Assembly: GCA_030704615.1 (NCBI GenBank)
Contig: CM060731.1
Span: forward strand, 82,274,001 to 82,338,000
Direction of reading: 5' to 3'
From: Takakia lepidozioides
Lineage: Eukaryota; Plantae; Bryophyta
DNA: 64,000 bases
Made by a program: the position numbers and the translations under genes. The notes below the pieces were generated by a model. The model was not told where the DNA came from and made no database searches. It saw nothing but the letters and a program-made list of their open reading frames with translations. Shown here in pieces: positions 36,524 through 64,000 of this stretch; the stretch's first letter is position 1; the number at the start of each line of letters is the position of its first letter.

Positions 36524-39500
36524 TGATACAATCGCCTGCCGTCTACAATGGTCCCCAACCCACACAGGCATCTGTATCTATGTGAGAAACCTAATATCTG
36601 CATATAGCAAAGTGCAGAAGATAAAATTTCTAGCTTTGGAAGAAGATAGCAAAACCCGCGCCCCTTATAATATAGCTCTTGATGTCAGTGTAAGAAAAAT
36701 CCTGCATTAGGCCCCCGTGGAATCTAGAAAACAGTGGGGATCCCAAAAAAAAAAGGGTTCCATGGTACCTGCTGTCACTCATTCCCGAAACACAGACGAT
36801 ATCTTGAGATGAGGGGGCACGTCGAAAGCATCTCTACCCTTTCAGAGTATCAGTTCTCTCTCTCTCTACGCTTAAGAGATCACAAGCGCCCGAGCCTTAT
36901 CTAGGTGCTATTCACCGAGCCGCTATTGTATTGGCAACTCACAGCATGCTGCAGACCTGTCATGCCTAGGTGCTAGTGCTCTCTGCCACGCAGTCATTCT
37001 AGTGTCTCTCTGAATCCTTCTCTCTCCTTGAATCCGCCTCTCCGATTCTAATCCATCTTTCTCTCTTCCTATCGAGCTGTCTCTCACACATCCACACCAT
37101 GTGTGTGCCCGTGTTGTCTTCCTTAAGTTTATGTTACGAGTGCTCCCGCGCACCTAAGAGAAAAAGCGAGGGAAACGGTTACGTACACAAGTACAGCATG
37201 CATGAATCAGAAGTACTCTGCAGGGGGCCTGCCCCTGCTGTACTCCAAAAGAGGCGTGAGATGAATAACTGACTAGCAGTCCTGCAGTTACTGAAAACAA
37301 TCATTTTAAGTCAGAGTGGATGGTGGCATGAATGCAGAACCGGTGGCTGGATACTTACCATTGAATGCGCGATTGAATGAAACACAAAGTGCGTAGGCCT
37401 TTTGCCTCTCACATTTACTCCCACTATTCAGAGAAAACATAGACATGTCCCGACAAGAAATCTGGAAAACTACATGTCAACCACCTCAGTACAAAACTGA
37501 GCTTTCACGGCAGTTTGATATCTCCAGTTCCTGGTAGGTACTAGGTACCTTGCGCTACTGTGCAACACACTGTGATTCAATTCGCCTCGGTAAGGTGGTG
37601 ATCTGTCGTCTCTTTCTTTCTTTGTCTCTAGCTTCCTTTCCTTTTCGCGGCACCTTTCCACAGGATACTGGGTAGGCTTGGCCAATTATGGTTCCATGGG
37701 GCTTTGTCCTCTTTGGAAGTATGCTCTGAACACCTCACATTAAACTAATGTCCGAGTGTCTACACCAGACAACCTCCAGGCACTGTCCTACTGGCAACAA
37801 CCAAAGATAGTTTGTGAGTTACCAACTGGAAGGAATCATCTCACACCCTTCGATACAAAGTCCCTGATATGCGGAACGTGAGAAAAAAAAATTTGTCGAA
37901 TGGTCAGAATGGTTTCCTTTCTTGGTAGATACGTTCACTTTTAAAACAAACAAGTAAACTTCCGAGCTTGTCATATCATCTCATCTCACAAACATTCAAT
38001 GAAGTTGTTACTACGGAACATAACTATGTTATGTGGTAAACGATATCAAAGTTCTACAAGTCATTATGATGCAAAAGTTGAGTCATTCCATACTTATAGT
38101 GTACCAGTCCGGACTCGTGGGAAGTGCCACCCTCCTTTACTAGCCCATTTCCATCATATTTGCCCATTTTCTAGTTAACAAACTCTCCCTCAGTTACACT
38201 AAATCCTCTTCCTGCTTCAAACGCAGGTGCTGAGAGGTCCTCAGCCAGCACGTCAGTAGGATTCAAGAGAGACGACACTTGCCAACGAACGTGAACTTGG
38301 TTCACAGAATTCTCCAGAAAAATTGGAAACAAATTTGAATATTGCACGCTCACCAGGATTGTAGATCTCATTACATGCTCTTCTTCTCGAAGGCTGACAA
38401 GAGGAGGTCGGAGAAGTTCTCGAACTAAGTTAGAGATTAGAAACATCAGCTTCTGCACCCCAGTTGTTCTTTGATAAAAATCCCACATTTACATGTTCAG
38501 ATAAATCTCGTCTCTGTCTACACCTAAATTCAAGACCGAAGTTCATCTTCAAAAGCACAGTAAGGTAGAGGAGCGTATAAATGTTTACCATTCAAAATGT
38601 GACCCCTATAAATATTTGTTTATATGGCTCATACGCGAATTCAGAAACGTCGAACTTGCTGATCCGAATTAGGTTTGTGACATGGCAGTTCACTGTTACT
38701 GGCTAGAATTACCTGCATGGTAAAGATAAGAGATTAAAGTGGCTGATCTACATGACAATTACTGCTGGGTCGAAACTCAACTCATATCTAGGGACGCATT
38801 AAGTCGTTTTGGGAGATGCATAGTGTTAGGAACTGCTGCAAGGGGGTCAGGATTCAAACAAGTTGTAGTTTATAATTGCAACAAGAGTGATTAGTTAGTG
38901 TGATTAATCCGATTTGAATTTGCAAGCAAACATATTAATGCAGAATGCATGGCCATTTTGAATAAGGGTCTGGTACTCCGATTCCGGCCACTGCTTATCG
39001 AGGAGCCTTTTTCTGTGGATCAGTTCCACCTATATCTTATGTTGTCCGTAACATGAAAGTGGCAATTCAAAAACAGAAAGCAAAGAAGGCAAGTCTGGAT
39101 ACATAAAGTAGTCTTCATCGAACCTCCATGGGTTCACAGGAATGCAAGCAGAGAACAAACGGTTCAGGCTGATGGCGACAGATAGATTTTGGTGGAGGGA
39201 AATGTGGTTCCATTACAATACTTGCCCATCAGCTTTGGGATCAGATCCAAGAGTTTTGGATGAGGAGGAGATTTGTTTATCTTCCAGTAGCATTTAGTTT
39301 TCAGATCATGAAGGTCCGTTTTTAATCAGTCCTAGGACACATCTGGTGGTCGCCAAGGACCCTTCAATCAACGCAGTCAGATTCTTAAAGCTCAGTAAAT
39401 AATCAAGTTAATGTAACTGATGAATAGTTTAACTGAATGACATGGACCATGTTACTGTGCAAACTAACTAATAAATGAAAGATGACACGCACCTTTTGGG

Positions 39501-39895: not shown

Positions 39896-42800
39896 TCATT
39901 TATCAGCAAATTCCTCGTCAACAAAGATATCAAAACTTCGTTTGGGGGCTTTAGAGACAGGTGGCTGCTTTCTCGCCACCTTTGAGTTCACTCCGTGAAA
40001 CCCATTGCCAACAGGCATGGCCAGATCCTCATCTACAAAGACCTCAAAGCCCTTGACCTGTGATTGAGCCGATGTGCCTGCAATTAATCCTCCTTTGGAA
40101 CGCATTTGCTGCACAGACAGTTCTTCATCCTCAAAGACTTGGAAGCCCTGATTCAGTGCCGGAGACTTGGACAATTGCTCCCTATCTACTTGCTCAGCCA
40201 AATGGTGATCCACGAAAACTTGAAATACCTCTTCATTTATCCCTCTTTTGTCACAGGTTTGCTCCACAGACAGTCCTGCATCCTCAAACACTTGGAAACC
40301 CTCATTCAGTGGCAGACACTTTTTCAAGTTCGGTTGCACAGCCAAATCTTCATCCGCAAGGACCTGAAACCCCTCCTTCGGGGCTACAGATGTAAGTACA
40401 CTGCACCTGTTTGCTCTGGAGGCCCGAGCTTTGGACCTAGCTCTCTCACACGAAAGAGGCCTATTGAACATTGAGAGGATGTCCTCCAAAGCCTCCTTTG
40501 TATTGATAGTCTGATCAAGCAGTCCCTGATGACCCACTGCATCTATACTGTTCACATCAGGATCTGGCCCCCGAATTATGAGTTCTTCTGCAAATCGCTT
40601 AATTGCAACGGTTTCATCTCCACTGCCTGAGACAGCAGTGGCAATGGCACCCCCTGTTGTTGGTGCAGGCAAAGAGCAATCAAAACCCCGAGGTTCATTT
40701 GTTTCATCTGGTACTTCTTTTGTTTCATCTGGAGTACCAACCGCCAGGTTCTTCCAAGCTTTCAGGGCACATCCTTCATTGGAGGAATCACTGCCCACGA
40801 TGGGATTCACTGGATTCGTTTCATTCTGATTGTCTGCATGCAGCATCAATTTACAGTCTTGGGACTGGCTGCTTCTCTCCGATAGTGGCAATGTCGGTGA
40901 TCCAAAACCTCCACTCCTTTGCTTCTCCCTCTCTGATCTAAACAGGTTTAAAAACATCTCTATCCTCTTGGCCTTCTCAATAGAGTTGCTCAGGGATGGG
41001 GACCATTGAGGTTGTTGCTGAGCAGCCCTCCACTGGGAGTGCCTGGCCTCCTCAAAACTGACCTCATCTCCATCCCTTGTGGTGTATATCTTGCTACCTA
41101 TGAGAACTATGGTAGATGTGGTAGCTTCTTTGCTACCTTGATCTCCTTCTGCAATCCACAAATTTCAAGCCCATTAAAGACAACAGAAGCATTGAAACAT
41201 ACAGAGGGTGATTCACAGGATATTGAATACTAATGGCCTTACGGCCATAAACTTCCCCTCAACAGTATGGAGAGTATGGAGAAGAGCGAAAAAGGAACTC
41301 AATAATGTCCACAGAGACAGAATCACACGAGCAGCAGTAGCTTGACATTTAACAAAGAAAAAACGAGGAGAGAGTGTGACCATAGCGGGGCTGAAAGGAC
41401 ACTGGAGCATAAACTCTCTACTTGAATCTGCAAGAATGTGTGCCTTCAACCTTACCAGGTTGTTTGCAATGCTTTTTGCCGACAAGAGACATCAGAGGTG
41501 GGTGATTGCCTTCTGTGAAATGCAGTAGTGGGTTTTTCATGAGAGCTTCGGTTCCCCTGCTGTCAAAGTTACAGGGCTTTAGTGTCAACACTCCCACCTA
41601 AAAAATCAGCTACACAATCATGCATCCCCTCGTCTGTTTGTCCACTCCAAAAAATGGATGTCAGCACTAACTTTGCTGCATGAATTCCATTAAAATGCAT
41701 GTATTTGTCTCAACTATCGGAAAAACGCACATTGTCAAACACTTGGTATGACTAGAGTAATTTCTTAAGGATTCACACTGTATGAATCTGCATGCTTCAT
41801 ATGTGTACAAGGAGCATAGAGAGCAAAACAAGGAAGGGAAATTGAGTAGACCTCTGGTTCTCAGGCATGTCATCGAGCCGCAAACGGAGGGTGGCTGGGA
41901 CAAGGAACTCCTTTGCTTGCACTGTTGGTGCCTTTACCCTGCATTCACACAGGCATTCTTTAAGTTAGGTGCTCTCTCTTCCCCACTTTTCTAGACTCAT
42001 TGTAATTGGGAGGGTTACCAAATTCAGGGCTATGGCACCAGTGCTAGAATGAATTTTGTGCAATCTAGCATGATGTCTCCATAACCCATACAGCACACAC
42101 TTCCTTGGCAACTGGATTTCATCAACTGTGAGCGAGTGCTTTGTCATAATCACATTCAATTTCATATACCCCAGTGGGCTGAAACACCACAAGAGGCTCC
42201 TGGAAGTTAGTATCCTGTGAAGACCATACCCTAGAGGGATGTGTTATAGGAGAGTTTTTTGCAAGGAACTGTCTTTAAGTACTTTCTGTCTTGTGAGCTT
42301 CATGTAGATATAAACATATAAACAAGTATTTTGTTTTCTTCTTCTGACTATGTATACTTAATTGATAAGTTTAGCTGACCTGTCAAACAGTCGAGCCTCT
42401 TTTGGGAAGAAGAAAATTCGTTCAGTTAACCATGCAGTGTTTTTACTCAAAAGAGGGCCAGGAAGCAGGAGAGCCATATGCAAAGAAAACTTACTGGGAG
42501 AACTCGTCATCAACAAAAACATTGATTTCTGGTTGGGCAGCTAGGGAACCTTTCTTGTGAGCAATCTGTACTGTGTATGACAAAACCAACTTAGCATATG
42601 TGCACCACAAAGAAAACTTCATTGACTCTGAAGAGTTTTATTTGAGCTTCTTGCAACATTCCTTCCAGTATCCTGCTTTCTATTGCCCCATAATCCCTTT
42701 TGGGTTTTCTGTGGGTGTGGTTTTCCCTTTTCATTCTTTCACTTCTTCTACTGCCCTCTATACTATGAGATCCGTGGGAGATTTCACTGTTTATTCAGTG

Positions 42801-45800
42801 GAACCCAAACTCTCACTGATGTCTTTCACTATGAGGATCAAAAATGCGTGGCAGCCTACCTACACGAGGCCTTCACCCTTAGACAATCGCTAGAACATTA
42901 ATTGTGGTTTCTGGATTTGTTCCTCTCTCATGTTTTCTTCCATTTTGTCCCATAAGCTCTACGAGCTTTCCGCGGACGTTATAAAGCACCATTTCATTTC
43001 ATTTCTCAGCATTTCATTTCTCATAACCTTCCTTTCCGTTCTCTAGAGAGTGTCTCTAAACTAATTCAAAGCTGCAGCGTGTTTGATGCCGCTGGCCAGC
43101 TTGTGCTGACAAGACAGGCAAGAGATTGAGGGTAAAGAACACTTCCTTCTTCTCTACTACAAATCATGGGCTGCTGCTAGTGCCTATTCAGGGACAGACA
43201 TCTTACAGGGTTGTTTCAGTATGGGGACCAGCAATGCCTGGCAGAATATCTACATGAAGCTCTCCACCTTAGAGAATCTTTGGAAGGCAATAGTAGTCTT
43301 CAGGCTGCTTTTTGTGGCTAGGCCTACTTCACTAGTTTCTCATTCTTGACCCATGAGTTCTGAGGCTTTAGAACCCATACAGTTTGTTGCTCAGATTTTC
43401 TCTCCTATACAAGCCCATGCACACACCTTCCCATCAGTCCATTTTGCTGGTAGTTGAGTGTTCTCCTTCGTGACTTCTGACTGGCTCCCCAAATTCTTCC
43501 ACAATGGAGCAGAAACATGACTCATGGCTGCATGGAAGCTGGCAGGCTGTTGGATGGATGGGAGAGATGGCTTCTTGCCAACCTCAGGATCGACATACAC
43601 TGCAAAGCCAGTATTTTCTGGTCTGCAAAAGCAACGCAAAGCTAGAGTTACTTTTGGTTCTTGCATACAACTGTTTCTGCAAACATAGGATTGCAAATCA
43701 ACTGTAAGAGAACTCATTATATCCATGGCAGGACAGGAGGGTCTATGGGACACAGTAGAACTACAGGGAACCCAAGACAAATTGTCAAAAAACCCTGGAG
43801 CCAGAGTGCCTCCCACAGGCCTCCCACAGGCCAGCTGCCTAGAGTGAAAGAAAGACAGAAGGAAGCTTTATAACTCTGTAAGAAATGAAATGGTGCTTTA
43901 TAACGTCCGCGGAAAGCTCATAGAGCTTATGGGACAAAATGGAAGGAAACATGAGAGAGGAAACAAAACCAGAACCCAAGAATACGAACTAATGTTCTAG
44001 CGATTGTCTAAGGGTGTGCAGGTAGGCTGCCAAGCATTTTTTATCCTCGTAGTGGAAGCTTCAGTGAGAGATTGGGTTCCACTGAATAAACAGTGGAATC
44101 TCCCACGGATCTCGTAGTATAGAGGGCAGTAGAAGAAGAAGTGTTCTTCAGTTTCAATTTCCTGGCTGCACCCTGTAGGAGAAAGATTGACTATCTACAA
44201 CACATTTACCTTTGAGTTGGTGCTGGTTGAGCTTTTCGTCTTGGTTGTCCCTGCAGCGACTGTGAAGGTACCCTCAGTGAATGACCTCCTGAAACAGAAA
44301 GAAAAGAACTTGGCATCATCCACATTGTGTGTTCAGTGGAGCGGAGCATACCATTTGCAAATCTCAGAGGCATAAATTGGCAGCATAACTCAACAGTTAC
44401 AACAACGTATGAGACAGGATAAAATACACAGTTTGCTCTTGAGCGTACTAGAATTGTTGATTATCTGTGTATGCTCCTTCCTAGGTCTATTACAATTAAC
44501 CCTCTTAGTCTTCTCATATTGATATTCAATGTGGCCAAAATGCAGCTCAAAGGCCTGATGATTGCAATACTAAGAACCTAGGCTAAAGACACCCTTGAAC
44601 TAACGAACCCGTGCAGGGAGCATGACCTCTACCTCCGGCCAAATGCCCAAATGAGCGTGGTCTCTCTGACTCAAAAGCTTCTTGCTCCTGCACAACCTCC
44701 CATACCAACAATTAGCTTTACACAAAAGAACACAAAGATGATGCACTACTCAACACTACAGTCAGATTGAACAAGCTGTCAAGAGATCCTGACTGTAGTT
44801 TTACCTCCTGGAGTTCACGTTCGCCACGCTTGATCATTCTCTTCATGAAGCTCTTGTGCATATTCTCTAATCTGCCTATTGGCTGGGCTTCCCTGTCACC
44901 CATATACCACAGCCTCAGCTAAGCAGTTCCCAAGCAAGAACCAGAAGTGCAGCTTTGATGGTTAATAATTGTGACACTCAGAACTTCCTTAATTGAGCAG
45001 GAAACCCAGGTCTGAGAGAGTTAAGTCTGCATCATACATTCTTATCCACCAACATTGATGGAAAACTAACCAAACTAGAGGTTATATATCCATCCAAATC
45101 TATGTGATTATGCAGGGATATTCAAAAAAATTAGCAGACATAAGAACAAAATTGAAGTAGGTATGAAATACCCAACCTTGCTAGGCCAAGCTCATAGACT
45201 TCATTTGCCTTGGTATAATGTCTGCAGATCTCCAGGTAGGTAGCATAAGCTTCATAGAAAAGGGCATGATCTTGGCCTATTCCATGTGTTTCCAGAAATG
45301 CGAAGATGTCCCTTGGATCCGTACAGCAATCTGCCTGCATGACAACACGGATATGCAGTGAAATCCACTCAAGGCTGGATTAGAGGACAAAAGTGCTAAT
45401 ATCTATGTAGCTAGAAGCCTCGCTGCCCCCTTGTCAATTTGTCCTCTATCTCAGATTATATGAGTCATATTCTGATCAGGATAATGAAGAAATTTACACT
45501 GATTTCTGGCATCAGAGTACACTATATTCAAGACTGCTGTGGCTAACTGAATGGTTCCCAAGAGGGCCACTTGCTATAGCTTTTCAAGGAGAACTCCAGT
45601 CCACGTTGAAATTGACCAAACTTAAGGGGGAAGAGGAAAGGATAGTTTGAGAAAGAACTCACATATTGCACCCAGAGTCGCAGATAGCGCACATCAGATT
45701 TGTAGCGTTCATCTGCTTGAAAGGTGTGTGTGCATGCCTCCAGCAATGGCAGCAGCTCAGACTGTGCACCTCCTGATGGGAAGGCCTCTTTTACCCACTT

Positions 45801-47786
45801 TATGCACCTGGTGCACAATATAAACTTGCTTTGAAAGCTGCCATCCCTTCAAGTTCCTTAACAGACAACTAAAAATTCTTTGTAGTATTAAAACAAAAGG
45901 TATTAGCATCTGGCTCTTTCCCTTCGCCCCAAATCTCTACCTGTGTACCTTTGGACCATTGGGCCTCCCACGACTAAATTAAATTTTTTGTTTATGCCTT
46001 TCTCTGTAAGCTCTATGAGCTTTCCGCGGACGTTATAAAGCACCATTTCATTTCATTTCTGTAAGACCTCTTCCTTTTGACAATCTGCCACTGTCTCCCT
46101 GCATCAAGAATTTGAAAAATTGTCCTCCAACAGTAATATTTCATAGAAACCACAACAAGAGTATACATGTAGCATACTCTCATGAGAAAGTAGTGGAGCA
46201 GGGTGGAATTCGAGAAACTTAACCAAATAGGACCACGTAGAAATTTCCTTCTAACTTAAGGATCAGCATCATTCTACAGAGAACACCTGGAAACTGCATG
46301 CTCATTGAAGAAGAGAAAAAAACAGGCATATTGCTATCGCCTTGAAAGATGGGTTAGGCATCAGGATAAGGAGGCAGGGTTTACTGCATCTGCAATATTT
46401 CCGGAAAATGTCTGGGAATAGCCCACTTTGACAAGCTAAGACAAGACATTCTTGCTTTCTCTGTAATGTCACTGTTCACCGTGGAGTTGAGGTGCCCGTC
46501 CTTTTTTACTCTCCAAACAGGACTTACCCAAGCCCTGCTAAATACGAGGGGGTGAAGAGACACATTGATAGACATCGAAAAGACACATTGAGTGCTCATG
46601 AGATTACAGAAACAACATACCGGAGCCATGGTTCGAGAGGATCGTCCCCTTCGTAATTGTCAATGGCTTCAATCATCTTCCTGCAAAAAATTCCGCCATA
46701 AGTTGATTTAACCAATGCTTTTGAGGCAGTCGCTCCCCTCTGGCAAAGATTGCAGAAACTGGGAGCAGCATCTCACATCCTCTTAGCTATTCACACCTTA
46801 CATGAGCATGCTGTGGGAAAAGTTATGACACACGAGGGCGTCATCAAGGAGGTACAGAGAAAACTAGAGTCAAGCCAGGATGCCACGCTCTGTGGACTAT
46901 ACATTGATGACCTGGAAGAATTCATCAGGGCTGACAAGGGCTAAGAACAGAGCTAGATGGAGGACATTTTGTTGTAGGCTGATGGCACTCTTATCCTGAT
47001 ACCCATTACAATTCTCACATCACCAAGCTTGTCTAGAAGAATTGCAGGACGATATGGGACTGCAGGTGAACTTGAGAAAATCAAAGGTGCTAGTGTTCAA
47101 CATGACAAATCCTCAGATGCAGGACAACCGATTTTTGTTCTGAATTCTACACATGTATGGAAATGGTGCCTACTGCCCCCAGCCTCGAGCACAAAGAAAG
47201 CAGAAAAGGACAGATTCACCAAAGGATCAGCTGCATCATTCAACTACAAGCCCAATGATAGGGATACTCTATTGTGCAAATGGCTATTTGGTTTGGTGGT
47301 CGCCCCCTTTCAGACATCTGGGGCCTGCTCATAGTTATCCCTTTGGTACAAACTTATAAGCCCTACTTTACTGCAGCAGATGATTGGCGCAACAAAACAT
47401 CAAGCAGATAGGGTACAAAGCTATCCGTGTCTGCACCAGGCTGCAGAAAGAAACAGAGCAACAATGTTTATCCTCCTGGCCTGCGTAATCAGCCCCAAAG
47501 AGATACTATTGTCTGTTTTTAGGGATACCTAATCTTTAGTGGAGGCAAATTCCTTTGAAGATCCTAAGTGCATAGCAGTCCTGCTTGAAAAGTCATCTTC
47601 GGGTGACCCTTGATCTATATTCTGAAGCATCTCTCGGAAGAAGTATAATCCAAACCTGCGTTGATGCTCAAAGATGTTGATCCGGGTGGGACCTTCCGTT
47701 TTCGCCTTGAGAGCCTCATTGAGCACTTCCACGTGCCTTCCCTGTCTTAGCGGCTGTACATTCTCTTTGCTGAGCTCCCAATCCAT
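39896..47786 (-). CDS. BUBR1: MAD3/BUB1-family (BUBR1/MADBUB-like) spindle-checkpoint gene, multi-exon
   Basis: Exon 1 MDWELSKENVQPLRQGR (KEN1). TPR exons: YEGDDPLEPW (about 46620-46680), CIKWVKEAFPSGG...RYLRLWVQY, and ADCCTDPRDIFAFL...GIG...ALFYEAYA. Then GFAVYVD...KENTQLPAKW (ABBA, KEN2) and a large exon with EVSFEEAR, TINTKEALEDILSMF and FxVFxD repeats. The 3' end is uncertain. Confidence 0.8.
42742..43005 (+). mobile_element. 5'-truncated LINE 3' end in an intron
   Basis: HFFYCPLYYEIRGRF...LEH* (ORF2 C-terminal CCHC region), then a 3' UTR and a (CATTT)n tail. Confidence 0.7.
43882..44180 (-). mobile_element. Second copy of the same LINE 3' end, inverted
   Basis: Reverse complement of 42742-43005; encodes CSQEIETEEHFFFYCPLYYEIRGRF. 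Confidence 0.75.
46007..46059 (+). mobile_element. Third, very short copy of the LINE tail
   Basis: TAAGCTCTATGAGCTTTCCGCGGACGTTATAAAGCACCATTTCATTTC. Confidence 0.7.
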
Positions 47787-50700: not shown

Positions 50701-52269
50701 AATAGTTATAGACTTGAATGTATAGTGGTGCAAGAGCATTTAGAGAAGGATTACATGTAGGCAAGAGTGAGAGAAGGAGAGGGAGATGAGGACAATGCCT
50801 TACAAATAGATGCAAAACCAGCGGTATTACCTGTAGCTTCAGAACAAGTAGTGGCAGGAAGATCTATGACCACATGCAACTCTAACCTTGGCAAGCTTGT
50901 GGACTGAGGTCTGTTCACAAATGAGGAGGTGGTACCAAGGCTTGTAGGAGGCAGAAGTGTCAATCATGATCCGAGGGAAATCCTCCAGGGATGATATTTC
51001 CATTGAATAACACATAGAGATTCATTGCTAGGCTATTAATGCACGCACTTCTATCTTCAGACTTTCTCTTCCGCTGTAGTCATGGAGATAGATAGTGATC
51101 TAACTGGTTGAAATGATGTGGGTGTCAGTGCCCCTTATTTTTACTTATACTATTGCTTTCAAACACATATCTCTAAACATGCAGATAAGCAGTAGAGGAA
51201 AGGTAGTACACTTATCCATGTACCCGACCTTGTAAGCTTGTGGTAAAGTGGCCTGAGACATATTGGTAATGTCTCCTTCAACACCATAGACAGTAGCAAG
51301 AACCTCTTATACAACACTAAAGCACTTGCAGGAAACGAATGAGAGAGATAGACCCAATGTGAGTATGACTTCATGTATTTGATAGAGGTCAAGGGTCATG
51401 TTTCCCTTGTCAAGCCCATATGGTATATCCCGAAAGCCGCGCGAGGGCATGTTGTTGTCCATAAAGATCGCCACCAGCCTGTGTAGATATCTCCTTCTCT
51501 GGATCGGGGGGTACTAGTAATGCAAGTGATTATGAATTCAGAGACAGCCTCGTGGGTTTCACGTAGAGCCCGCAAGTTGCTTAGTAAGTTGTGTACTCCA
51601 GAAACTCCTAATGTCATAAAAACTGTCATGTGCGTGTTTATTTTCCGGATGTTTTTCATAAGAGGTTACATATGTCTAAATTCTGTCTATCGACTTATGA
51701 ACGTATAGTAAGGCCTTAGTGTATTTTATGACCCAATAAGTCTTATTTAGGTACCAAACCCTCCAGATCAGAAAACATGTATCTTCTTAGAATGTACTTA
51801 AAGCCTAGGATATGAAATATGAGAAAGAAAAGAAAAAAAGAAAAAAAAGAAAAAAAAAAACCCTCCACCATATCCCTCGGTATAACAGTCCCTTGAAGAG
51901 CGAGTGTGGTATGCACTCACCCCTCAAGGGAGTGCATACCAGACTCCAACTCCTCAGAATTTATATTGCACTCCCATCTCTGCTGTGTAGTCGAGGTTGG
52001 CCACTTGCTGTCAACACTCAGTGGTCATACACTATCATATTTAACAAGTACTGACTTCTACATTGTTACTGCTCCTTGAAGCAAAGACAGCTACATAACA
52101 CCATTTTCATGAAGAAAAGAATACATATACCTTTAAGAAGATCAATTACCTGAAAACCAGATCGGGAAAGACATATTCTTCAAGGAACTTGATGAGAATG
52201 GTATAGAGTCTCTTTCTGCCGAACCCATTGTCTTCTAGGGTCTGTATAAGTATCATCAGTTCGGTCACA

Positions 52270-53012
52270 ATGTGTTTCACTTTGTTGGACAGGTATAGTA
52301 TAGGAAAGCCTGTGAAAGAACCACATTGTAGGATTGACGCACTGGTCTATTTGACCGACCGTTAATGTACCGAGTATACTGAAACGGTAGGTTGCTCCTC
52401 TTGTCATATTTTTTGAACTCGTAAGTCCCATTGACTGGATCAAGTATTGTCAATTGCAGATTCATAAAGCAGGCTTCAATATCTACATAATTGGGGCCAA
52501 GTCATGAGTTCAAGAGCTCTGGTTTTATTTCCACGATGTCCAGGGGATAGATCCACCAAGGGTTCTTATCATTTTGTTTGGTGGTGGGGTCCAGGAATTG
52601 CATAGCATCCCCGACATTGACCCAACAGATGTCAATGTACCTGAAGGCATGTAGGAAGTTGGGCAGGATATGAACCTGCTCCAAGGCTGCCAGTCTGAGA
52701 ATGAATTCATCTTATACATCAGAAAATATATGTTGCACCATAGAGGTGAACAAGAGAAACCCATGGGTATGCATGACGTTTGTTGCCATACTCGGTCCCC
52801 CGATCGTACAAAGTAGTGTTTCATGAGCCATGTGTGCAGAATGATCAGTCTCTCCTGTGATAGTACTATCCACCAACCATTTCAAGATGCGGATGGCCCC
52901 CATCTGGTTTTCATAAACATCTCCTTGTTGTCACTATATTGTACCCACAGATGGTGCCTTGCCCTCTTGTATTTGAGATGGTGTTGCAGCTTGAACGCAA
53001 TATCTACTACAT
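52270..53012 (-). mobile_element. Penelope-like element reverse-transcriptase remnant
   Basis: HYFVRSGDRVWQQTSCIPMGFSCSPLWCNIY, FRYID, and the thumb YDKRSNLPF...SNRP...YNVVLSQ; frameshifted. Confidence 0.65.
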
Positions 53013-53760: not shown

Positions 53761-53778
53761 GTGGAGGCATTGCCGGAG

Positions 53779-54530
53779 CAGGGATGCCTCGGCGTGAGCC
53801 TGGTCACGTAAGCGCGTGAGCGCAATTGCGCTCACGCCACGTCACCTTGCGCCAATGCCACATCACGGGGCTCACTCCACGTCATCACACTTGAAGACCG
53901 CGTCACCGCGCACCCAGGAAGAAGTGGAGTGTATTCCCGCGGATTGGCACCTTTACCGCGGAAACAAGCTGGACGACATAATAAAAGACAGTGGTCATTC
54001 CCACCTGAAAGCAACAGATGAATAAAGGATGGATGAATGTATAGTTGGATGATAAAGAGATGGATGAGTGTGAAAAATGAATGTAGATGGATGAATGAGG
54101 GATGGATAAGAGTCAAATGGATGAATATATAATGAATGTTGAGCAATGGAAAACATTCATGACAGGAAGATACATGACTAAAACTTTAGACGAATACACA
54201 ACGTATATGACATGAGTGTGGTAGGTTTGTGGGTTGGATTAAAGAGTACAGAGGATGAATGTACAATGGATGTTGAACAAAGGAAAACATTCATGAATGG
54301 AGCACGCATGAATACACTGTAGATGAAAGCACAATGGATATGACAAGAGTGAGGGAGGTTTGTGAGATGGATTCATACATATTGCAATTTAAATGGTAGT
54401 TGATTCTTTGATTATTTTTCTTTCCAAATGAACAACTACGGTGGAGGAAGGGGATTCAAAGTTTTCCAAAGAGGATGAAACAGAATATTAAAAGAACATA
54501 GTTCAATCTGACTCAGAGTCAGTACAATGT
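53779..54530 (+). mobile_element. Left end of a second member of the 3502-10618 MULE family
   Basis: Starts CAGGGATGCCTCGGCGTGAGCCTGG and is collinear with 3502-4083, including the GGATGAAT-rich tract and CAGAGTCAGTACAATGT. Confidence 0.8.
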
Positions 54531-55049: not shown

Positions 55050-57204
55050 TCACAATTCCGACATCGACTGGCGATCGTAAAAAAAAATTGCAAGACAAAA
55101 ATGTAGAAATATCAAAGGTATTCAACCCCTATTCCTTGGAGCTAGAGCTTTCATGAGAGCTACCAAAAAAGAGGCGGCATTTGCACTTTATGTGACTCCG
55201 ATCAAGTCCACAACAGACAAAGGTACTTCAACATTACCCGCTCAATATCAAGATTTCAAAGATGTCTTCGAGAAGAAAAATGCAGACATATTGCCAGAAC
55301 ATTGACCTTATGACTGTGCAATTGAGTTATAAGAAGTCCAAGGATCACATGATTTGTCGGAGACTAGATGACATTGAAAACAATATGTGATGTTTGATCT
55401 TTAAGCTTCACTTCAAGTGGTCGAGTTTCATGGTCCACATTTTCTGATGCTAATGGTCGTCCATCGATGAATTCAACGGGGGCCGAGAGTTTCTTCTTTA
55501 CGAGCGTTAAATTGTTTTGCTTCGCAAAGTTTTTGTCCATAAAACAAGCTGAAGCTCCTAAGTCCAAAAGTGCTTTTACAATGATATCTCGATTTTGCAC
55601 TCTGATTTTTACTGGAACTGTGAAGCAAGGTGCAGGGTCTGGAGGTAGAAAGAGATTTTTTTTTCTTAAGGAATTTGTGGTGTCCAGCCGCATGGTCCCT
55701 ACTGTGACTGGACATCTTCGTTTTTCGACCTCCTCGTATCGAACACTTGAGTTGTGCCCCGAGCTTTGAATCTTCTATTGTTGGGGCAGTTTAATGCTAT
55801 GTGATCTTCTTCTCCGCAATAGAGGCATAATCCATTCGAGCATCGTCTTTGTTTTTCTTGTGGCGTCAATGGCTTGAATCGGACAGCATCAATCTGCATA
55901 GGATCACTACTGGATGTCTGATGGATCGTTGTGTTTGGTGTCGTAGTAGCAGTGGCATGATGTGTCGGAGACCATCCAGATCGCTTCTCTTGACGTCTTT
56001 CGAACAAACGATTATCGCATGCAATGACTTGGGTGATGAATTCACTCAGTGTGCTCACGTTTGGCATTGTCAGCAACAAATCTTTTACATCATCTTTTAG
56101 TCCACATCAAAACTGACTAATGGGGCTCTTCTCATTCCAGTCGAGGTCGCACGCAAGTTGTCGAAATTTGGCAACATAAACGGAAGCAGGACGTGCTCCT
56201 TGTCGAAGATTTCACATTTTTGTTTCTGCAACTCTCTCTCTATCATTTTCTCCAAACGTTGCAGTGAACTCGGACTTGAATGCTTCAAAATTGTATAGTA
56301 AATGCGAATTTTTTTCTAATAGCGGTGCAAACCAAGATAGGGCAGTGCCTGACAGAATGGTGCCCACGAATCCCACTTGAATACCTTCATCGGTTGAAGA
56401 TCCATTGTTCGACTCATTTAACTCTGAAATTTGTTGTTGCAAATTGTGGAGAGCGTTGCTAAGATCTTGAGACTAATCAGCTTGCAATTGGGCGGTAGAT
56501 GTACAAAGTTCTTGCATCTGGAACTGAAGACTCTGCAATGTGGTGACCATTTCCGCAAATGTGCCTTCCATCTCAACTAATTAAAGAACAAACTTGAATC
56601 TCGCCAAACTGTCAAGGACGAGAACATGACAGAACACAAACAAGAGATCAGTCTAGAGGTACAAGACTAGACAAGAAGTTGTTGTGCGCATACGTATCGC
56701 TACACAACTACATTGTTGTTCAAACCACACCACACATATATGCACAATAAAGTAATCTGTCATCGTGCGCATACGTATCGTTACACAACTACATCGTTGT
56801 CCAAACTACACCACACATATATGGACAATAAAGTAGTCTGCCACAATTGATAAGAAACTAAAAACACGCTGTTGACACAAAAACATGAAATCCAACACCA
56901 TCACTCATCACTCTTTAAAATAGTAGTCAAGCCAGGGGCACCCCAAGCTATGGGGACTCCACCCCACAACAACCTATGCTCCCTTCATAAGCACACTCAG
57001 ATTCTAAGCAGTGAAGGAGCTCGGTCGTGCAGGCTCAACTCGAGAGAGATGAGCCGCACGACTGACAAGCTCGTGAAGATAAGATGATTCAGGTATCAAG
57101 CTAAACTTGACACCTGACTTAACACTTGAACTAATTCCAAGTGTTAAATACAAATAACTAGATTTATTCTAGTTAGTTTCACACTGTGTTTATTTAACTT
57201 GACA
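55050..57204 (-). mobile_element. Truncated Tcn1-like chromovirus (Ty3/gypsy): LTR 56610-57204, gag, protease
   Basis: LTR TGTCAAG...CTTGACA. gag LSGTALSWFAPL...PMQIDAVRFKPLTPQEKQRR..GLCLYCGEEDHIALNCP; protease ALLDLGASACFMD. The post-protease segment lies inverted at 55050-55335. Confidence 0.8.
56680..56845. repeat. Two tandem copies of the 85-bp mini-LTR, inside the chromovirus LTR
   Basis: Near-identical to 57207-57291. Confidence 0.8.
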
Positions 57205-57206
57205 AC

Positions 57207-60200
57207 TGTCGTGCGCATACGTATCGCTACACAACTACATTGCTGTCCAAACCACACTACACATATATGCACAATAAAGTAGTCTGCCACAATCGCCCCC
57301 CTAGCTGGTGGTTAGGTCCCTCTAACTCCAGATAGCTACAAGATGTAATAGCCACAGCCATACTAAGTCCTCTATCACTGTATCTATTGTACTCAAACTC
57401 TATAGACCAAGAGGCCGGGTACAAGAGCAACCCCATCGTTAGTCGCCGTCTTGCAATCTGTGAACTTGAGTCAGGATCTTGTGTGTTGGTCTCCTAGTAG
57501 CTTGGCCTTGCATTTCTTGTTAGCCTTCCATGGTTGTATCCACTCCCACTATCCAATGCAATGCGGACAAAACCAATCCCCATCAGGAACCATCTCAAGA
57601 GGTGGAGTCAAGCATCCCATATGCCAACCTCTAGAGCATTGATCACACACCAGCATGGTGGCTGCCCCTCTAGCAGACCCACATAACATGCACCTCAAAC
57701 TTGCAGGTACCACTGCCAGGTTTGGGTCAACCTTTCCATCAACATTTGGAAGGTGACATGGCGCGCAATTACGCACATGGTCCTTCCTAATCATGCCATC
57801 CCGACCCTCCAAGATCAGGACTCCTGAAGGCAACACCTCTTGAACCCTCAAAATAGTACGTCATGCAGTCACATCCAAGGTCGTAGGAGCAGTCTGCTGC
57901 AGATAAACATAGTCACCAAGGTTAAATCTCCGGATCCCAGGACGATAGCCCCCACCACGTATGGTAGCATACCTCAACATATCACGATGTTGTGCAATGG
58001 CAAGGTTCTCGAAAGCCATGGGCATGACTTTCTTCAACAACTCTGCACGCTGATCACGCACGTGCCTACATGTCCGGATCGTCAAGGTTGAGAACTGTAG
58101 CAGCTTCTCTACGAATGGATGCAGGCAAATCTGGCTCTCGGCCAAAGAGAAGAAAGTATGGTGAGAAGGAGGCAAGTGATGCTTGTTTGCTGAACTTGTA
58201 GCCCATGGCTAACCAGGGTAACTGAAGGTCCCAATCTCCTAGGTGTCTCTTTTGCAAGCCATACTTGCGCAAACCCTCTTTACTGTCTGAACAACCCTCT
58301 CTGCCAAGCCATCGGCCTCAGGATGATCCCGAGAAGTGGTGCGGTGGTCTACCAAGGCCTGGTCACACAAATCCTAAAACTCCCCCAAGAACTCTCTCCC
58401 TTGGTCCATGAGTACCTCAGCTGGAGCACCGAATCGGCTAAGTACACAATCCAAGAATGCATACGCAGCTCCCTCACTAGCCTTATCAGGCAATGGAACG
58501 AACTCGATCCACTTGGAGAAGTGTTCCACCATCACCAACACGTACTTGTTGTGGCGCATGGTCAGTGGCAACGGCCCTGCAAAGAACTCGTACACCTGCC
58601 TGCAGCACTGCAGCCAATCCAGTGTTGATCCCGCCAAACAAGTCCAGAAGGCATATGCCTTCATCCGGGCACTGCCACACAAGAGGTGTGGTGTCCAATG
58701 GCGACAATTGAGGTGGTCCTGGTGCAATCACCGCACTCTCCTCCTCTCCTGACAGTACGAAGGCCTCTACCCAGGCTTGTTGCACATGTCTATCATTAGC
58801 CTGCTGCAAATCCTTGCTCGTACCCCACAATGGAGTATGAGCAACCATGGCAGGCAACTCCGCCGTACCATGCATGTCATCTTGCTCTGTTGGAGGTGGC
58901 ACATCCTCTACATGGGCATTGCCCTCCAGCAACCCTCCAGGCCAACTAATTGCAGCTGTGAAGGCAGCTAGTGTTGGCATCTTGCCCCGCTGGGCAGCAG
59001 CAGCACCCCCAATGAATGTCACAGGGAGCTGTACACGACGACCATCCCCTGACTGTCATCCAGGCCTGTAGGATGCTGACTCCTCCCAAAAATCCAGGGT
59101 GAAGCCCATGGGATATAACACTGCCCCACCAATGAGGACATCGTAAGAGACCGCGTCTGTCACAATGGCCTTGGCTCGCATCACTGAGCCATCTATAAGA
59201 TGATCCGGCTGTAGTCTAATGGCCAACTCACGCCGTGTCATGCCCCGAGCCTGCTCTGATCCTCCCAGAGATGTCTGTATCTGGAAAGGACAAGGCTCCA
59301 TGTCCGCCTCCATGAGGCCCAAACCTGCAATAGCAGCTCTGCCCAACATCAGTGGCTGAGCTCCCGAGTCCAACAAGACCCGCAGTGGCCGGTACCTCTT
59401 GCCTGCCGGTCCACTCAAAGAGAAAATGCCATCCTGGTTGTCTAACAAGACAACTCCAGGTGTCACTATGGCGCGCTCACTGGCCCAGCTGGCAGCTCCG
59501 TCAACCTGGCAGCAGCAGCTTGCCATGGCGCAGCCGTGGCAGTCTTGACCCTCAAATCCGAGGATCCCTCTGCCACTACACCCTCCACTAACTCCGCAAA
59601 AGATGAAGTGACCTCCTCACTCTCGCAGAGTGTTGCTGCTAATCTGAACACTGCAGCTGGTCTTACCCCCGGCGTCGCGATCATGGTTGCCGAGAACAGT
59701 GGGGCCTGACACACAGAGGTGGCTGCCCCCAACAATACACTGGCTGCACTAGCCTTGGCAGCAGGTGTCAGTGTTGCACGTGTAGCTCTCCCCAATGGCA
59801 CAATAACGGCCTCTGTATCTGTCAGGCGAGAACTAGGTGCCATGGATGTCGTCGACACTGTCTCCCCCAAGATGAATGATTGAGGCAACCTAGCCTAACA
59901 GCTTGCCTCCCCATGCTGTGGATCTAACTCTGCACCTCGTGGCTCAGGAACTCATGTTGCTCCTCAAGTGACGGCTGCAGCAGACTCCACCTGCACTAGT
60001 GGTAGTGTTGCCCCACACATAAATCCCATGCCTCCCATGTTGCCTCCGTCAGGATGACGCTGCTAAGGAGGAACAGGAGGTGGACCCTCAGGTCTTGGAG
60101 CTGGTACCACCTAAGCTATGGCCATGGCAGCAAGCCTTTGCTCTAGTTGCTGAAGTCGGTTGGCCATGCCTTGGTCAACTCCCTGACCTCCACGTCCTTG

Positions 60201-62031
60201 GCCATACTATGCTTGCCCTCGTCCTACACCTCATGCCTGACCACCTCATCGTCTCTGAGGTGCTCCAGCTCGCCCTCGGCCACCATTGTTCCCTTGGAAC
60301 TGGCCTTGCCGCAAGTCAGGGTGCAAGTCATAACACTGGGCATCTCCATGCCCATATTTGCCACAATGCCCACACTGCAATTGTGCAGGCTGTGCTTGTG
60401 CCGGCCTTTTGCCACTCTCTGGGCAATCTTTCTTGACATGGGGTCCTCCACATTTCCAACATATCACCCCTGGTTGCTGTTGGCTTGCAAAAGATGCTAT
60501 TGGCCTCTGCACCTGCGGTCCCCTGTAGCTCCATGGAATTTGGGTTGGGAAACCTTGCCCCCCTGACCACGTTGTTGGGCAGTCCCTTGTGCCTGTTAGC
60601 TGGCAGCTGCGCCTCGTGCAGGCATGTCCTTGCCAAATCCAATGGTAACAACTCGCTCCTCCACCATGTTGAGCTCAATCCGCTCAGCCAGCAGAAACAC
60701 ATCTGCTAATGTGGGTTGGGCCGCTTGTAACAGGGTTGCATCCCGCACCCTTCTCCTGAGCTCCTTGTCCAAAATTCCATACCAGAACTGGACTGCCTGA
60801 GCTTCAGTAACCCCTTGGGTCACACTTATCAAGCGCCTCATACGAGTGTAGGCCTCTCGCAAGCTCTCACTAGATTTGCGCTGGAAGTCTTGCAAACTTC
60901 GCAGCTTCTCTATCCGTACGCCTTGGTAGTTCGTCCGCAACTCCTGGAAGAACTCCACCACTGGGTTGAATCTAGGCACATGTGTTGTAGTCGTGGCAGG
61001 AGGAGTAGTAGCACCTTTTGAACTGGTACCACCTACAGAAATACCGACACTACTTGTTCCACTACTAGTGCTGGCAATGGGAGATATTGGTGCTGATGCA
61101 GCTACTAGTCGCGTCGTGCCTCGAGTAATGAAGACGTAGTCAGGTGACCAATACATCCTCCACTCCTCAATCTTTGCTTCATGTCCTCGCCTAAACTCGT
61201 GGTAATCGTCCATAGGCGGACCTTCCAAATGCTGGAACAGTCCCTTCCACGCCATGAATGGGGTGAACAGCTGTGGATTGCGCATCTGCTGCAAATCACA
61301 CCAGCTGTCGAACTCCTGGATAAAGTCATCCAGCTCGATTGTGCCCATAGCTCCAGAGTACCTACGAGGCCCCTTGGTAGCTCCATACATCTCCTCCATG
61401 TCGTCCCACAACAATGGCGAATGAAACTGCACACCTGTTGATGAAGCCTCCGAGTCTGTGTCTGACTCTGCACTAGTTGAGGGTGGAGGTGAAGGTGGTC
61501 TGAAACGAACACCTCGTCTGGTGAACTCACTGCTACTGCCTGTAGCCGTACTCCCCTAACCCTTGGGTAACTCCGTGATAACACTCACAACCTGCACCTC
61601 CCCCACGTGACACTATAAGGCTCTAGTACTAATTCTAATAGTGACACGGGTGAGCACCTGTTGCGGATTAAGGGTCATATCCCAGTGGTTAAGGGCACCT
61701 GCACCTGCATCCACTGTAAGAACTCCTATGGTTGGCTGGTCATCAACCCAGCCTCACCATAGAAGAAACACTGGTGGTCTTGCTGGTCATCACTCCAGCC
61801 TCACCACCGACAGCATACTCTAGGATTGACCGGTGATCAAATCCGGCCTAATCCCTATGAAAGCAAGCGCCCACACAAAACCAACATGGCGCACAGTCAA
61901 GCATGCAGGTGTTGGGGGGGATCCAAACACAAGAAATCAAAACATCAACACCCCCACACCAAAATCCATCTGCAGTGATGATCCTGCAGAATATCCCAGC
62001 CCAAAAACCCCGGACTGACTGGCCTCCACCA
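57207..62031 (-). mobile_element. Internally deleted Ty3/gypsy element: gag (two zinc knuckles), protease, DNA-methyltransferase N-terminal remnant // integrase, PHD finger, PPT, 85-bp LTR
   Basis: gag 60596-61399; knuckles CWKCGGPHVKKDC and CGHCGKYGHGDAQC; protease RVLLDSGAQ; LLDLFGGINTGLAAVLQAG; integrase FAGPLP...VEHFSKW...DQGREF; PHD CMLCGS...LVCDQCSRGWHMGCLTPPL..VPDGDWFCPHC; PPT GCTAGGGGGGCGAT; LTR TGTGGCAG...CACGACA at 57291-57207. Candidate PBS TGGTGGAG at 62031. Confidence 0.85.
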
Positions 62032-64000
62032 AGAGAGGCTTTGGCAACTACAAGTACAAAGTAATGAAAATAGTAAAGAGAAGGAGGGGAAGAATAGAGG
62101 CCCGACCAAGCAAGATCTAATCCTGATCTATGCTATCAACTGCCAGACTTCTCTCAAAGTGCCTCGCTCTGCATGATGGTAAGGTGTAGGAGGTATATCT
62201 ATGTCCAGAAACCTGCTACTAACCTTATCCCAAGCTACAGTAGCTCGCTCTAACCAACCCTCCTCCTCTTTCTGCCAGGTAGAGACAAAGCAATACTTCC
62301 CTATCTCCCGCTCACTGAATACTAAAGAAAATAAAGGTAGGGTCCGACAGTCTCTCAACTCGAAAGCTTTGAGACGGTTGCGAGTGTCCTCATTGCGAAT
62401 GACTGCATCTCCTTCAAGCAGAACAAACTTGTCATTGCTAATGAACCCCCGCTTGGGGGGCGATTGCACTGCGCAACACCTTCACCTTACTCTCAATGAG
62501 GCTAGACGTAGAGATGGAAGAGGAGAACCACCGAATGGAGCTGCAGAGAACCAGGAAGCAAGTGGGAGGAGCAGGAGTGCCCACAGCCTCTTCTTCATCA
62601 GTCGACTCAGTATCAGGAGGAGCTGGAATGGCTTCATCACCAGCCCCCTTACATCTGGGGATCCAGTCGAAAGGCAAGGGAAAAGCCTCTCCACCGAAGA
62701 TCCAGCCGCACTTGCGCATGAAAAGCCTGGTAATCATACCTAAATTTCAGATGCCAGGCTGCATAGCCCTTAATGTGCAGGTCCAGAAGCATCAAAACAC
62801 CCTGGACTCATTCAATTCCAGCCACATTTCCAGGGTGAAGACATAGCCGCCAATGCACATGGCAATTAGGCCTGGAATCAGGCTGCAAAGCCTTCATTAC
62901 GCTTCTCCATAAGCATCAAACGCCATGAATTCATGCATCAGGAGCACTTAGCCGTCACCATCCACTTCAACACTACTTCCACAAGCAGAGGCCGAAGCAG
63001 CAATTCACAAGCTGATGGGCACCGACAACGTTGAAAGCCTGCGTCACACTTCTCCCCTACTATTCCTTCCTAATTGTCACCATGTCTCCCTTGAACACCA
63101 CGATACAGACTCAAAATTTTATGGTAAGCCTCGGTGGTGAGAAGTCAAACTGCTCAGATGCTGAACTTGATGTCGATCACTTGCCCTTCATGAATCGTCT
63201 TGCAGCACTCCCTCTCTTCAAAGCTGTGAAACAATCACTGCATCGCCCTATCTTGATTAATTACAAGTCTAAACTGCAATCAAAAGACTTTAGTAGGAAA
63301 CACATTGCCCGCTTCTGATCGTCATAAACGGATTGCTTTGCTCGGCCCTCATGACCACCACTAATCAACTGTAGCCGTGGCCCTCAATCTGGTAGTTGCA
63401 TAAGATATCACACTGCGAAGTCATCAACCTAATTCCTGCCCATCATCTGGCAGCAAGCTGCTTCTCCCACCAGCCCTGCCTTGTACAATCATGATCATGA
63501 GTGCCAATGACGGCACAGTATCTATAGCCGCACCCCACCAAGCTGTTTTCCCCCGTGAGTTCATAAATTGCTAAGTGGTGATCACAAGGAGAGCGGCAGC
63601 TCCGCCTCTCCTCATAGGCTCAAATCATCACAAAGCAAACAGATGGCACCGTCTCACCCCACCTGCACTTGCACAACATACCAAGTCCTTCCCCCGTGAG
63701 CTGATCTTTCAGAAATAGATCATCAAAAGGCGGCACCGCTTCCCTGTAATCGCAGCTGCACACCCTTCCAAGCATTGCTCCTCCTCTGTCAGCCGCACCT
63801 CATGCCACGCCATGCTCCTCAATCGATATACCTCAATGCATGCATGCCAAGCTCCCTGCTGCACACTCTTCACTGCTCCTCACCTTCTTTCGACAAATCG
63901 CTTTTCTCACTTTTAAAACAAAAAACCACAAGTGCTAAAACTAAACTCACCTCTGGCACTCACAGATGCTAGATGATCTCTCTCGAGTGATAAGAAACTA

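Follow-up and report, generated by a model that had tools for sequence, protein, structure and literature searches.

A decayed Ty3/gypsy copy in Takakia lepidozioides belongs to a land-plant family carrying a DNMT3-type methyltransferase and an integrase PHD finger

Introduction

The closest described relative of the element reported here is KnitGypsy-Dnmt3 of the alga Klebsormidium nitens, a Gypsy retrotransposon with a DNA methyltransferase (DNMT) domain. According to the accessible text of its report (de Mendoza et al. 2018, PMC5890265), it has DIRS-like repeats and evolves under purifying selection, and methylation of its cDNA was proposed. We analyzed a stretch of 64,000 nucleotides of Takakia lepidozioides (assembly GCA_030704615.1, contig CM060731.1, positions 82,274,001 to 82,338,000 of the forward strand), hereafter called the window. 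It contains a dead, internally deleted Ty3/gypsy copy from an abundant family of seed-free land plants. This family shares with KnitGypsy-Dnmt3 the Gypsy pol region, a non-permuted Dnmt3 domain, purifying selection and DIRS-like repeats. From what the accessible text of that paper says, KnitGypsy-Dnmt3 was acquired in the K. nitens lineage and has few copies, whereas the present family is abundant in land plants. The term "PHD" is absent from the text and readable supplements of the paper (the domain may be drawn in its Fig. 4c), and no mechanism of integration or priming was found in these parts. PMC12344493, in its accessible part, merely repeats the report from streptophytes and dinoflagellates, and that of PMC11982613 contains nothing relevant.

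Other elements share single traits with the family. EpiLTRs/DAM-LTRs, as described in the available part of a preprint (bioRxiv 10.64898/2026.05.21.726589), are likewise long terminal repeat (LTR) elements with a DNA methyltransferase and a chromatin reader. They differ in having DAM, a chromodomain and a DNMT4-sister enzyme, and they occur in Cymbomonas and Euglena; the preprint itself sets them apart from the streptophyte Gypsy-DNMT3 elements. The Tf1/Sushi and Tcn1 chromoviruses (REXdb paper, Neumann et al. 2019, PMC6317226) likewise have a primer-binding site (PBS) complementary to their own repeat rather than to a tRNA, and a reader at the integrase C-terminus; this reader is a chromodomain, whereas that of the present family is a PHD finger. 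Neither "PHD" nor "methyltransferase" occurs in the main text of that paper. PHD fingers are recurrent transposon accessories, common in green algae (REM1 and others in Chlamydomonas, Chlamys, CR1, Rehavkus; PMC8557442), and the accessible text of that source mentions no DNMT3 partner. Finally, readthrough of the tobacco mosaic virus (TMV) type likewise takes place at a stop that precedes the polymerase and has CAR-YY(A) after it (accessible text of PMC2754532).

A literature search of incomplete coverage (most subscription papers, Repbase and theses lay outside it) returned no paper on the family in land plants. For the family names, it yielded the 2018 paper and the 2026 preprint alone. Within the same coverage, no paper was found on its PHD finger, the stop between DNMT and reverse transcriptase (RT), self-priming, palindromic ends with 4-bp duplications, or the integration route. 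This kind of element is already known from KnitGypsy-Dnmt3; what we did not find in print is its occurrence in land plants, the PHD finger, the stop, the predicted self-priming and the palindromic ends.

Results

Methyltransferase remnant and deletion in the window copy

The element lies on the minus strand, with its 3' end at 56680 and its 5' end past position 64000. The initial annotation had placed it at 57207..61399, which is indeed part of it but understates its extent. Multiple stops and frameshifts inactivate the copy. In gag, a premature stop at 60598 is followed by a frameshift and more stops. The Ty3/gypsy enzyme order gag-protease (PR)-RT-RNase H (RH)-integrase (IN), with a DDE integrase, is found in relatives; the window copy retains gag, PR and IN.

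Downstream of the protease, the peptide WQCPDEGICLLDLFGGINTGLAAVLQAGVRV (minus strand, 58677-58585) is immediately followed, in another frame, by the FAGPLP motif of the integrase core. The initial annotation had read this peptide as motif I of a DNMT3/DRM-like C5 methyltransferase, and had taken RT, RNase H and the rest of that domain to be deleted at about 58584. Comparison with related sequences confirmed motif I of a DNMT3-like enzyme. The 86-amino-acid stretch ending in the remnant matched 19 longer proteins (51-73% identity, E 3e-19 to 2e-8), 7 of which carry a precomputed PF00145 match; those with a species name belong to Marchantia polymorpha, Calypogeia fissa and three species of Sphagnum. 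The linker and motif I are 59% identical over 85 amino acids to P0337, an intact Gag-PR-DNMT protein. The motif-I pattern occurred once in the six frames of the window and in none of 50 base shuffles, a weak control because the pattern was written from the remnant peptide itself. As the initial annotation had anticipated, full-length relatives continue from motif I through PCQ and ENV, and these motifs lie between protease and RT. The DNMT3 half of its "DNMT3/DRM-like" label stands, given the linear motif order; the DRM half does not, since there is no permutation.

The deletion itself is demonstrated by comparison with a related species, organism B. One of its contigs, 5,009 nt long (run X9, 95-99% class), matches 57287-58584 and 58585-58965, with 3,277 nt in between; the size of the window's deletion at 58584/58585 is the length measured on this contig. 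In 18 loci of relatives the corresponding interval could be measured; it is 3.1-3.3 kb long in 14 of them and 4.1-5.0 kb in the other 4. The lost segment comprised the rest of the DNMT, the stop position described below, RT, RNase H, the integrase zinc finger (ZF) and the codon of the first catalytic Asp. The loss of these last two was deduced from contigs of three other runs, which depart at 58584 into the sequence preceding the integrase core. Further internally deleted copies are L015, L047 and L055; L015 retains the whole DNMT and the PHD finger, and has no RT, RNase H or integrase core.

DNMT domain and descent of the family

We collected 81 loci of the family (80 from JGI, one from IMG/VR), many on short contigs. 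A DNMT domain was found in all 81, a protease in 63, RT in 55, Gag in 48, RNase H in 40, an integrase core in 31 (one of which, in L027, belongs to another element) and a PHD finger in 27. The order is Gag-PR-DNMT-RT-RH-ZF-IN-PHD. Most loci are close to Sphagnum-named proteins (median identity 64-75%, up to 91%). The DNA of the window element is 72-74% identical to Sphagnum-like loci over the integrase-PHD part, and its gag is 58-63% identical to the Gag part of the Marchantia proteins P0012 and P0020-P0022.

After motif I, GWPCQG and ENV follow in the relatives at constant distances. Of the 186 DNMT domains that are nearly complete, 131 have the motif I pattern, 164 a motif IV-like pattern (strict PCQ in 86), 163 EN[VTAS] and 175 motif VIII. 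In an alignment of 49 sequences, the Cys of PC and the Glu of ENV do not vary. All five patterns (motifs I, IV, VI, VIII and X) are present in P0020, P0336 and P0337, and fewer in P0013, P0019 and P0050. Compared with solved structures, P0007 matched DNMT3A best (E 6e-12), then DNMT3B/C, DRM and bacterial enzymes. Its structural model (pLDDT 92, pTM 0.90) was searched with Foldseek, and all 32 matches listed were DNMT3A/B/C (best E 2e-18). A DRM-type enzyme was rejected, as motif I precedes IV and VI and the DRM entries score below DNMT3A/B. Thus the family has, like KnitGypsy-type elements, an intronless, non-permuted Dnmt3 domain in the pol region.

The ratio of non-synonymous to synonymous substitution rates (dN/dS) in the DNMT domain ranged over 0.10-0.26 in the 14 pairs that compared different subfamilies without saturation. 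It was 0.43-0.56 in 3 pairs of decayed copies from the same subfamily, and 4 saturated pairs gave no defined value. By this measure, purifying selection is shown for the DNMT domain.

With P0007 as query, a profile-free search matched 269 proteins at E values of 1e-30 or lower. We classified 219 sequences: 44 had the order RT-RH-DNMT-IN-PHD, 5 had DNMT-RT-RH-IN-PHD and 104 had DNMT only. An RT-RH tree (69 rows) and a DNMT tree (70 rows) each separate "DNMT before RT" from "DNMT after RH" by a single relocation of the domain. The "DNMT before RT" group received SH-aLRT (approximate likelihood-ratio test) support of 99 and 98, respectively, and in both trees it included the K. nitens protein KFL_009030040 together with land-plant-type loci. 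The four stop-bearing loci formed one branch (99 and 98). Both trees were quick reconstructions with SH-aLRT as the only support measure, without bootstrap, outgroup or host DNMT3. The window copy, without RT and DNMT, is tied to the lineage via its Gag, PR and IN identity. From its species and domains, we infer that KFL_009030040 is a KnitGypsy-Dnmt3 copy; in comparisons with land-plant and related domains, its DNMT shows 41-47% identity in 4 of 5 pairs, and 31% with a damaged Sphagnum model. On the evidence of both trees, the family and the K. nitens element share descent.

In a large sister group (P0041, P0044-P0059 and others), the DNMT follows RNase H and precedes the integrase, and most members also have a PHD finger. 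P0044 also carries a G-patch, and P0173 has two PHD fingers. By domain annotation, the pairing of DNMT and PHD is not confined to land plants, but also occurs in the 44 RT-RH-DNMT-IN-PHD proteins of this sister group. P0062, from the chlorophyte Cymbomonas, is the only named protein of the wider group without RT-RH matches. The IMG/VR contig carries a distant DNMT match (L081, 10001-10345, 34%) with no retroelement domains nearby.

PHD finger of the integrase

The initial annotation had described an integrase ending in a canonical C4HC3 PHD finger, and this holds: the window domain (57692-57558) has all eight ligands and matches PF00628 at 44.8 bits (cut-off 24), while the integrase core matches PF00665 at 38.6 bits (cut-off 32.6). 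The PHD finger closes the integrase frame in 27 of the 29 loci that have the C-terminal part of the integrase, and the other two stop at a contig edge. Since the DNMT-bearing elements end in this finger, the proposed pairing of a methylation writer with a chromatin reader in the parent family was also upheld.

The best PDB matches of the finger are CHD4, ATXR5, KDM5B/A PHD1, PHF12, DPF3, BAZ2, PHF21A and UHRF1, most of which we take to be readers of the histone H3 tail when it lacks methylation at K4. At the second residue ahead of the zinc-binding His, where we assume the tryptophan of the H3K4me3 cage to stand, 75 family PHD fingers have G (70), A (3) or P (2), and W in none. Judged by this position, the family PHD finger is without the cage tryptophan. 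For the IN C-terminus/PHD segment, comparisons between subfamilies gave a dN/dS of 0.05-0.26, and one pair of decayed copies gave 1.36; at the level of substitution rates, this shows purifying selection on the PHD finger. The window copy is itself inserted in another Ty3/gypsy element, a single anecdote consistent with repeat-rich targets.

Stop codon between DNMT and RT

An in-frame stop was found 17 or 24 codons ahead of a conserved W-x-P motif before RT in 51 of 55 anchored loci (TAG in 34, TAA in 17). It is followed by CAR-YY in all 51. The full CARYYA, which is the TMV readthrough context (PMC2754532, accessible text), occurs in five (L019, L028, L074, L075 and L076); in 44 loci the stop is followed by CAACCC, mostly then ATG, which is the pattern of the largest subfamily. 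This stop differs from that of TMV in its place, between Gag-PR-DNMT and RT-integrase, and in the main subfamily also in having C as the sixth base. Of 21 loci measured, 18 keep the same frame on both sides of the stop. Locus L075 illustrates this arrangement, with open frames of 1,369 and 1,047 amino acids in the same frame with the stop between them, the second closing after the PHD finger. The proteins P0020 (Marchantia Mp4g09160) and P0337 and the P0023 group terminate close to the stop position. In the K. nitens proteins P0050 and P0038, by contrast with the land-plant branch, DNMT runs into RT without a stop. As DNMT and PHD finger lie on opposite sides of a conserved stop, the land-plant branch probably does not produce writer and reader in equal amounts.

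Repeats, ends and predicted self-priming

The terminal repeats are split into two parts, A and B. Such DIRS-like split repeats are present in the window, L013, L057, L062, L064 and L069. Copies take one of two forms. The A...B-A-B form was seen in L057, L062, L064 and L069, in L013 (without its 5' end) and, rearranged, in L036/L037; the A...B form, with both ends in view, in L019, L029, L039, L053 and L055. Two complete direct LTRs at both ends were not found, so that the elements are Gypsy by their enzymes, with non-canonical ends. Membership in DIRS/PAT/Ngaro was rejected, an rve integrase being present in full-length proteins.

Copy ends correspond to the two halves of a GACA-nn-TGTC junction. 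Target duplications of 4 bp were found in 9 of 10 loci with both ends visible (7 exact, 2 with one mismatch); that of L057 could not be placed. At the A/B junction, 2 nt match the 2 nt that follow the copy's own polypurine tract in the window, L013, L057 and L064, with L069 one transition off, and longer remnants of PBS or polypurine tract were found in L036/L037 and L062. Standard reverse transcription, as in retroviruses, would give B-A...B-A. Cutting at the internal junction, with the free ends joined or not, explains both the A...B and the A...B-A-B forms.

The PBS of the window copy is the 12-nt reverse complement of 57050-57039 in repeat A. L047, L065 and L069 have a different PBS, which pairs at the same place over 14 nt, and the A repeats of the window and L069 are only 60% alike. 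Such unlike PBSs, each pairing with its own A repeat at one place, suggest that the element self-primes reverse transcription as in Tf1/Sushi and Tcn1. Pairing of at least 9 nt was found in 10 of the 26 rows listed, which contain false anchors and decayed copies; support therefore comes from the least decayed loci and the window. A TATA match lies about 29 nt upstream of the predicted start in L062, L064 and L069, and none was found in A2 of the window.

Features of the window copy and neighboring sequences

The features of the window copy are given in Table 1. Host contigs connect the end of the window to 56865-56881, which backs the assignment of A1. The leader is about 2.6 kb long, against about 1.2 kb in the JGI loci. 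Its two open reading frames (ORFs; 117 and 102 amino acids) have no Pfam match and neither nucleotide nor translated matches to family loci, and the one searched in Atlas gave no credible match. Summed contig depth over leader positions 62675-63742 was several hundred-fold below that of the coding part (run X1); this depth was used only to show that the family is repetitive and does not represent copy number.

Table 1. Coordinates of the features of the DNMT-bearing element in the window, from its 5' to its 3' end.
Feature	Position	Strand	Remark
Last 13 nt of 5' terminal repeat (A1), remainder outside the window	63988..64000	-	13-nt exact match to A2 end, 56860-56848
Primer-binding site (predicted self-priming)	63976..63987	-	12/12 complementary to 57050-57039 within repeat A
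5' leader, 2.6 kb	61400..63975	-	longer than leaders of relatives, without similarity to these
gag with zinc knuckles, and linker	59485..61399	-	ATG at 61399; PF03732 under cut-off
Aspartic protease (LDSGA)	59059..59484	-	PF13650 and PF13975, both under cut-off; premature stop 59058 follows
Linker and motif I of DNMT3-like C5 methyltransferase	58585..58842	-	truncated by deletion
Deletion junction, 3,277 bp	58584..58585	-	X9 contig; loose ends at 58584 in X1, X3, X5
Remaining integrase core and C-terminus, interrupted by stops and frameshifts	57693..58584	-	PF00665 above cut-off
C4HC3 PHD finger at integrase C-terminus, then terminal stop	57549..57692	-	PF00628, 44.8 bits
Polypurine tract and 2 nt ahead of repeat B1	57292..57302	-	arrangement shared with relatives
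Repeat B1, 85 nt, TG...CA	57207..57291	-	75% identical to B of L069
B/A junction, GACA-nn-TGTC	57200..57210	-	perfect palindrome in L013, L043, L069; marks both ends of inserted copies
Repeat A2, 357 nt, TG...CA	56848..57204	-	contains predicted transcript start at 57050
A/B junction (2 nt, as after polypurine tract) and repeat B2	56763..56847	-	B1 and B2 93% identical
Extra tandem repeat B3	56680..56762	-	3' end of element at 56680, inside unrelated Ty3/gypsy element

The DNMT element is inserted in the 5' part of a degenerate, repetitive Ty3/gypsy element (55360-56679, minus strand; DUF4939/Retrotrans_gag and protease). Past 56679, other host copies of this neighbor differ in sequence. Three further retroelement remnants were seen: a gag-protease ORF of a different LTR element (26416-28245, minus strand) and, by eye, RT/RNase H fragments of a further Ty3/gypsy element (16347-17920, plus strand) and RT-like fragments of a non-LTR or Penelope-like element (52180-52881, minus strand).

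The window also contains two STR/STR2-like ABCG half-transporter genes in inverted orientation (1-657, plus strand, and 19095-22354, minus strand), 84% alike over 656 nt. For the region 19098-20720, the best named match is from Marchantia paleacea (58%), followed by Selaginella and ferns (50-51%) and seed plants (at most 46% over full length), an order that points to a seed-free land plant as the most likely host. STR genes are linked to mycorrhizal symbiosis. An F-box beta-propeller gene lies at 35039-36577 (minus strand). At 7017-9878 (plus strand), ORFs of 480 and 473 amino acids share one frame with a stop between them; the second has a weak SWIM zinc-finger match, and the pair is possibly a DNA transposon. 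Nested inverted repeats of 78, 43 and 81 nt surround a 0.9-kb core at 42742-44138, with a third arm copy at 46007-46060, a structure resembling a non-autonomous DNA transposon. Finally, 3498-4802 and 53775-54411 share a common repeat, about 50.3 kb apart, with a 170-nt tandem array at 4075-4802.

Discussion

Our reading is that the family belongs to the KnitGypsy-Dnmt3 lineage, with the layout Gag-PR-DNMT3, stop, RT-RNaseH-integrase-PHD, and that it packages its DNMT at the level of Gag and methylates its own new cDNA, which the comparisons make probable, if only modestly so. The majority of ribosomes would halt after the DNMT and a minority read through, so that DNMT would be abundant and RT/integrase-PHD scarce. 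The 5' end of the RNA would pair with the PBS and prime reverse transcription. The integrase would then cut the B-A...B-A cDNA at the internal B/A palindrome, the internal cut giving A...B copies and joining of the free ends giving A...B-A-B copies. By binding H3 tails without K4 methylation, the PHD finger may anchor the integrase in repeat-rich chromatin, which pre-methylated cDNA would suit. Taken as a whole, this is a tentative picture, and we doubt that every part of it will hold: an old green-plant Gypsy lineage, abundant in bryophytes, that combines leaky-stop loading of DNMT3 at capsid level, self-priming, cDNA methylation, palindrome-cut integration and PHD steering to H3K4-unmethylated chromatin.

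Several observations weigh against this reading. As reported in the accessible text of PMC5890265, the KnitGypsy-Dnmt3 enzyme gave no methylation in yeast, a result its authors call inconclusive. Many of the dN/dS pairs are near dS saturation. The stop-bearing loci amount to only about four independent lineages, since the 51 loci come mostly from one subfamily and include the same insertion in several samples. Moreover, CAACCC followed by ATG is an imperfect readthrough context that also allows re-initiation, and the stop was seen in relatives and not in this host, as its region is deleted in the window copy. Concerning the repeats, no B was found upstream of the 5' A at the 25 clean 5' ends, which represent 22 distinct insertions; a symmetric two-LTR circle would also yield A-B-A...B copies. 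Finally, B1 and B2 within a copy are 90-94% identical, no closer than B1 between copies (88-96%).

The DNMT may be kept for a non-catalytic or non-cDNA role, such as DNA or RNA binding in the particle, shielding of cDNA, or methylation in trans of host or rival-element DNA. We hold this to be unlikely, but serious enough to keep in view: besides the inactivity of the Klebsormidium enzyme in yeast, output at the Gag level would far exceed the enzyme required by one cDNA, and RNA binding and host benefit are among the options that de Mendoza et al. list for retrotransposon DNMTs (PMC5890265, accessible text). Catalysis is favored, however, by the invariant catalytic Cys and Glu and the low dN/dS, and the SymbioDIRS-Dnmt3 enzymes were active in the same yeast assay (same source and part). 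That the peptide at 58677-58585 instead resembles a methyltransferase by chance, or derives from a host DNMT3/DRM gene of which the window copy alone picked up a fragment, has a negligible probability. The 38-amino-acid remnant alone matches no Pfam family, but the PR-linker-DNMT region of relatives aligns colinearly with it, at 53-73% identity, and of the 80 JGI loci with the domain, 63 have a protease upstream, 55 RT and 48 Gag, many others being cut by contig ends. This domain context and the organism B contig ruled out both versions.

Two further alternatives concern expression and integration. Without any readthrough, RT-integrase-PHD could arise as a protein of its own, either because ribosomes re-initiate or because a spliced or additional transcript is used. 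An ATG two codons past the stop in most main-subfamily loci, where the sixth base is C and not A, is what such a route would use, yet L019, L028, L039, L074, L075 and L076 have no such ATG; moreover, the preserved frame across the stop (18 of 21 loci) and the conservation of stop and CAR among subfamilies with differing flanking peptides speak for readthrough, and we regard a separate protein as quite improbable. Somewhat less remote, though still improbable, is that the split repeats are an inherited layout templated from the RNA, as in DIRS/PAT elements, or arose by recombination after ordinary end-to-end integration. Such origins would fit the occurrence of A...B and A...B-A-B only, and never of A-B-A...B. 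An exchange between B1 and B2 would turn A...B-A-B into A...B with the target duplication retained, and tandem LTR structures are common in plants (PMC11899658). Against these origins, no tyrosine recombinase was found among the Pfam matches of the 17 long relatives scanned; ordinary integration would leave a 5' B, which the 25 clean ends do not have; and the A/B junctions are heterogeneous, with primer remnants, as expected of joined cDNA ends. Internal cutting of the cDNA remains the reading that we prefer.

The role of retrotransposon DNMTs was left open by de Mendoza et al., whose one green-lineage enzyme, according to the accessible text, failed in yeast. Since Marchantia has an intact-looking Gag-PR-DNMT3 gene (Mp4g09160, with all five motif patterns), this role can now be put to the test in a plant for which methylomes and chromatin maps exist. 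The Gag-PR-DNMT3 genes of the family can also be mistaken for host DNMT3s in counts. The conserved stop predicts a methylase at capsid level, and the ends predict a DDE integrase acting at an internal site, unlike textbook end-processing. If this is true, the family would represent a retroelement that arrives pre-methylated in silent chromatin, and whose cDNA ends are not used for integration.

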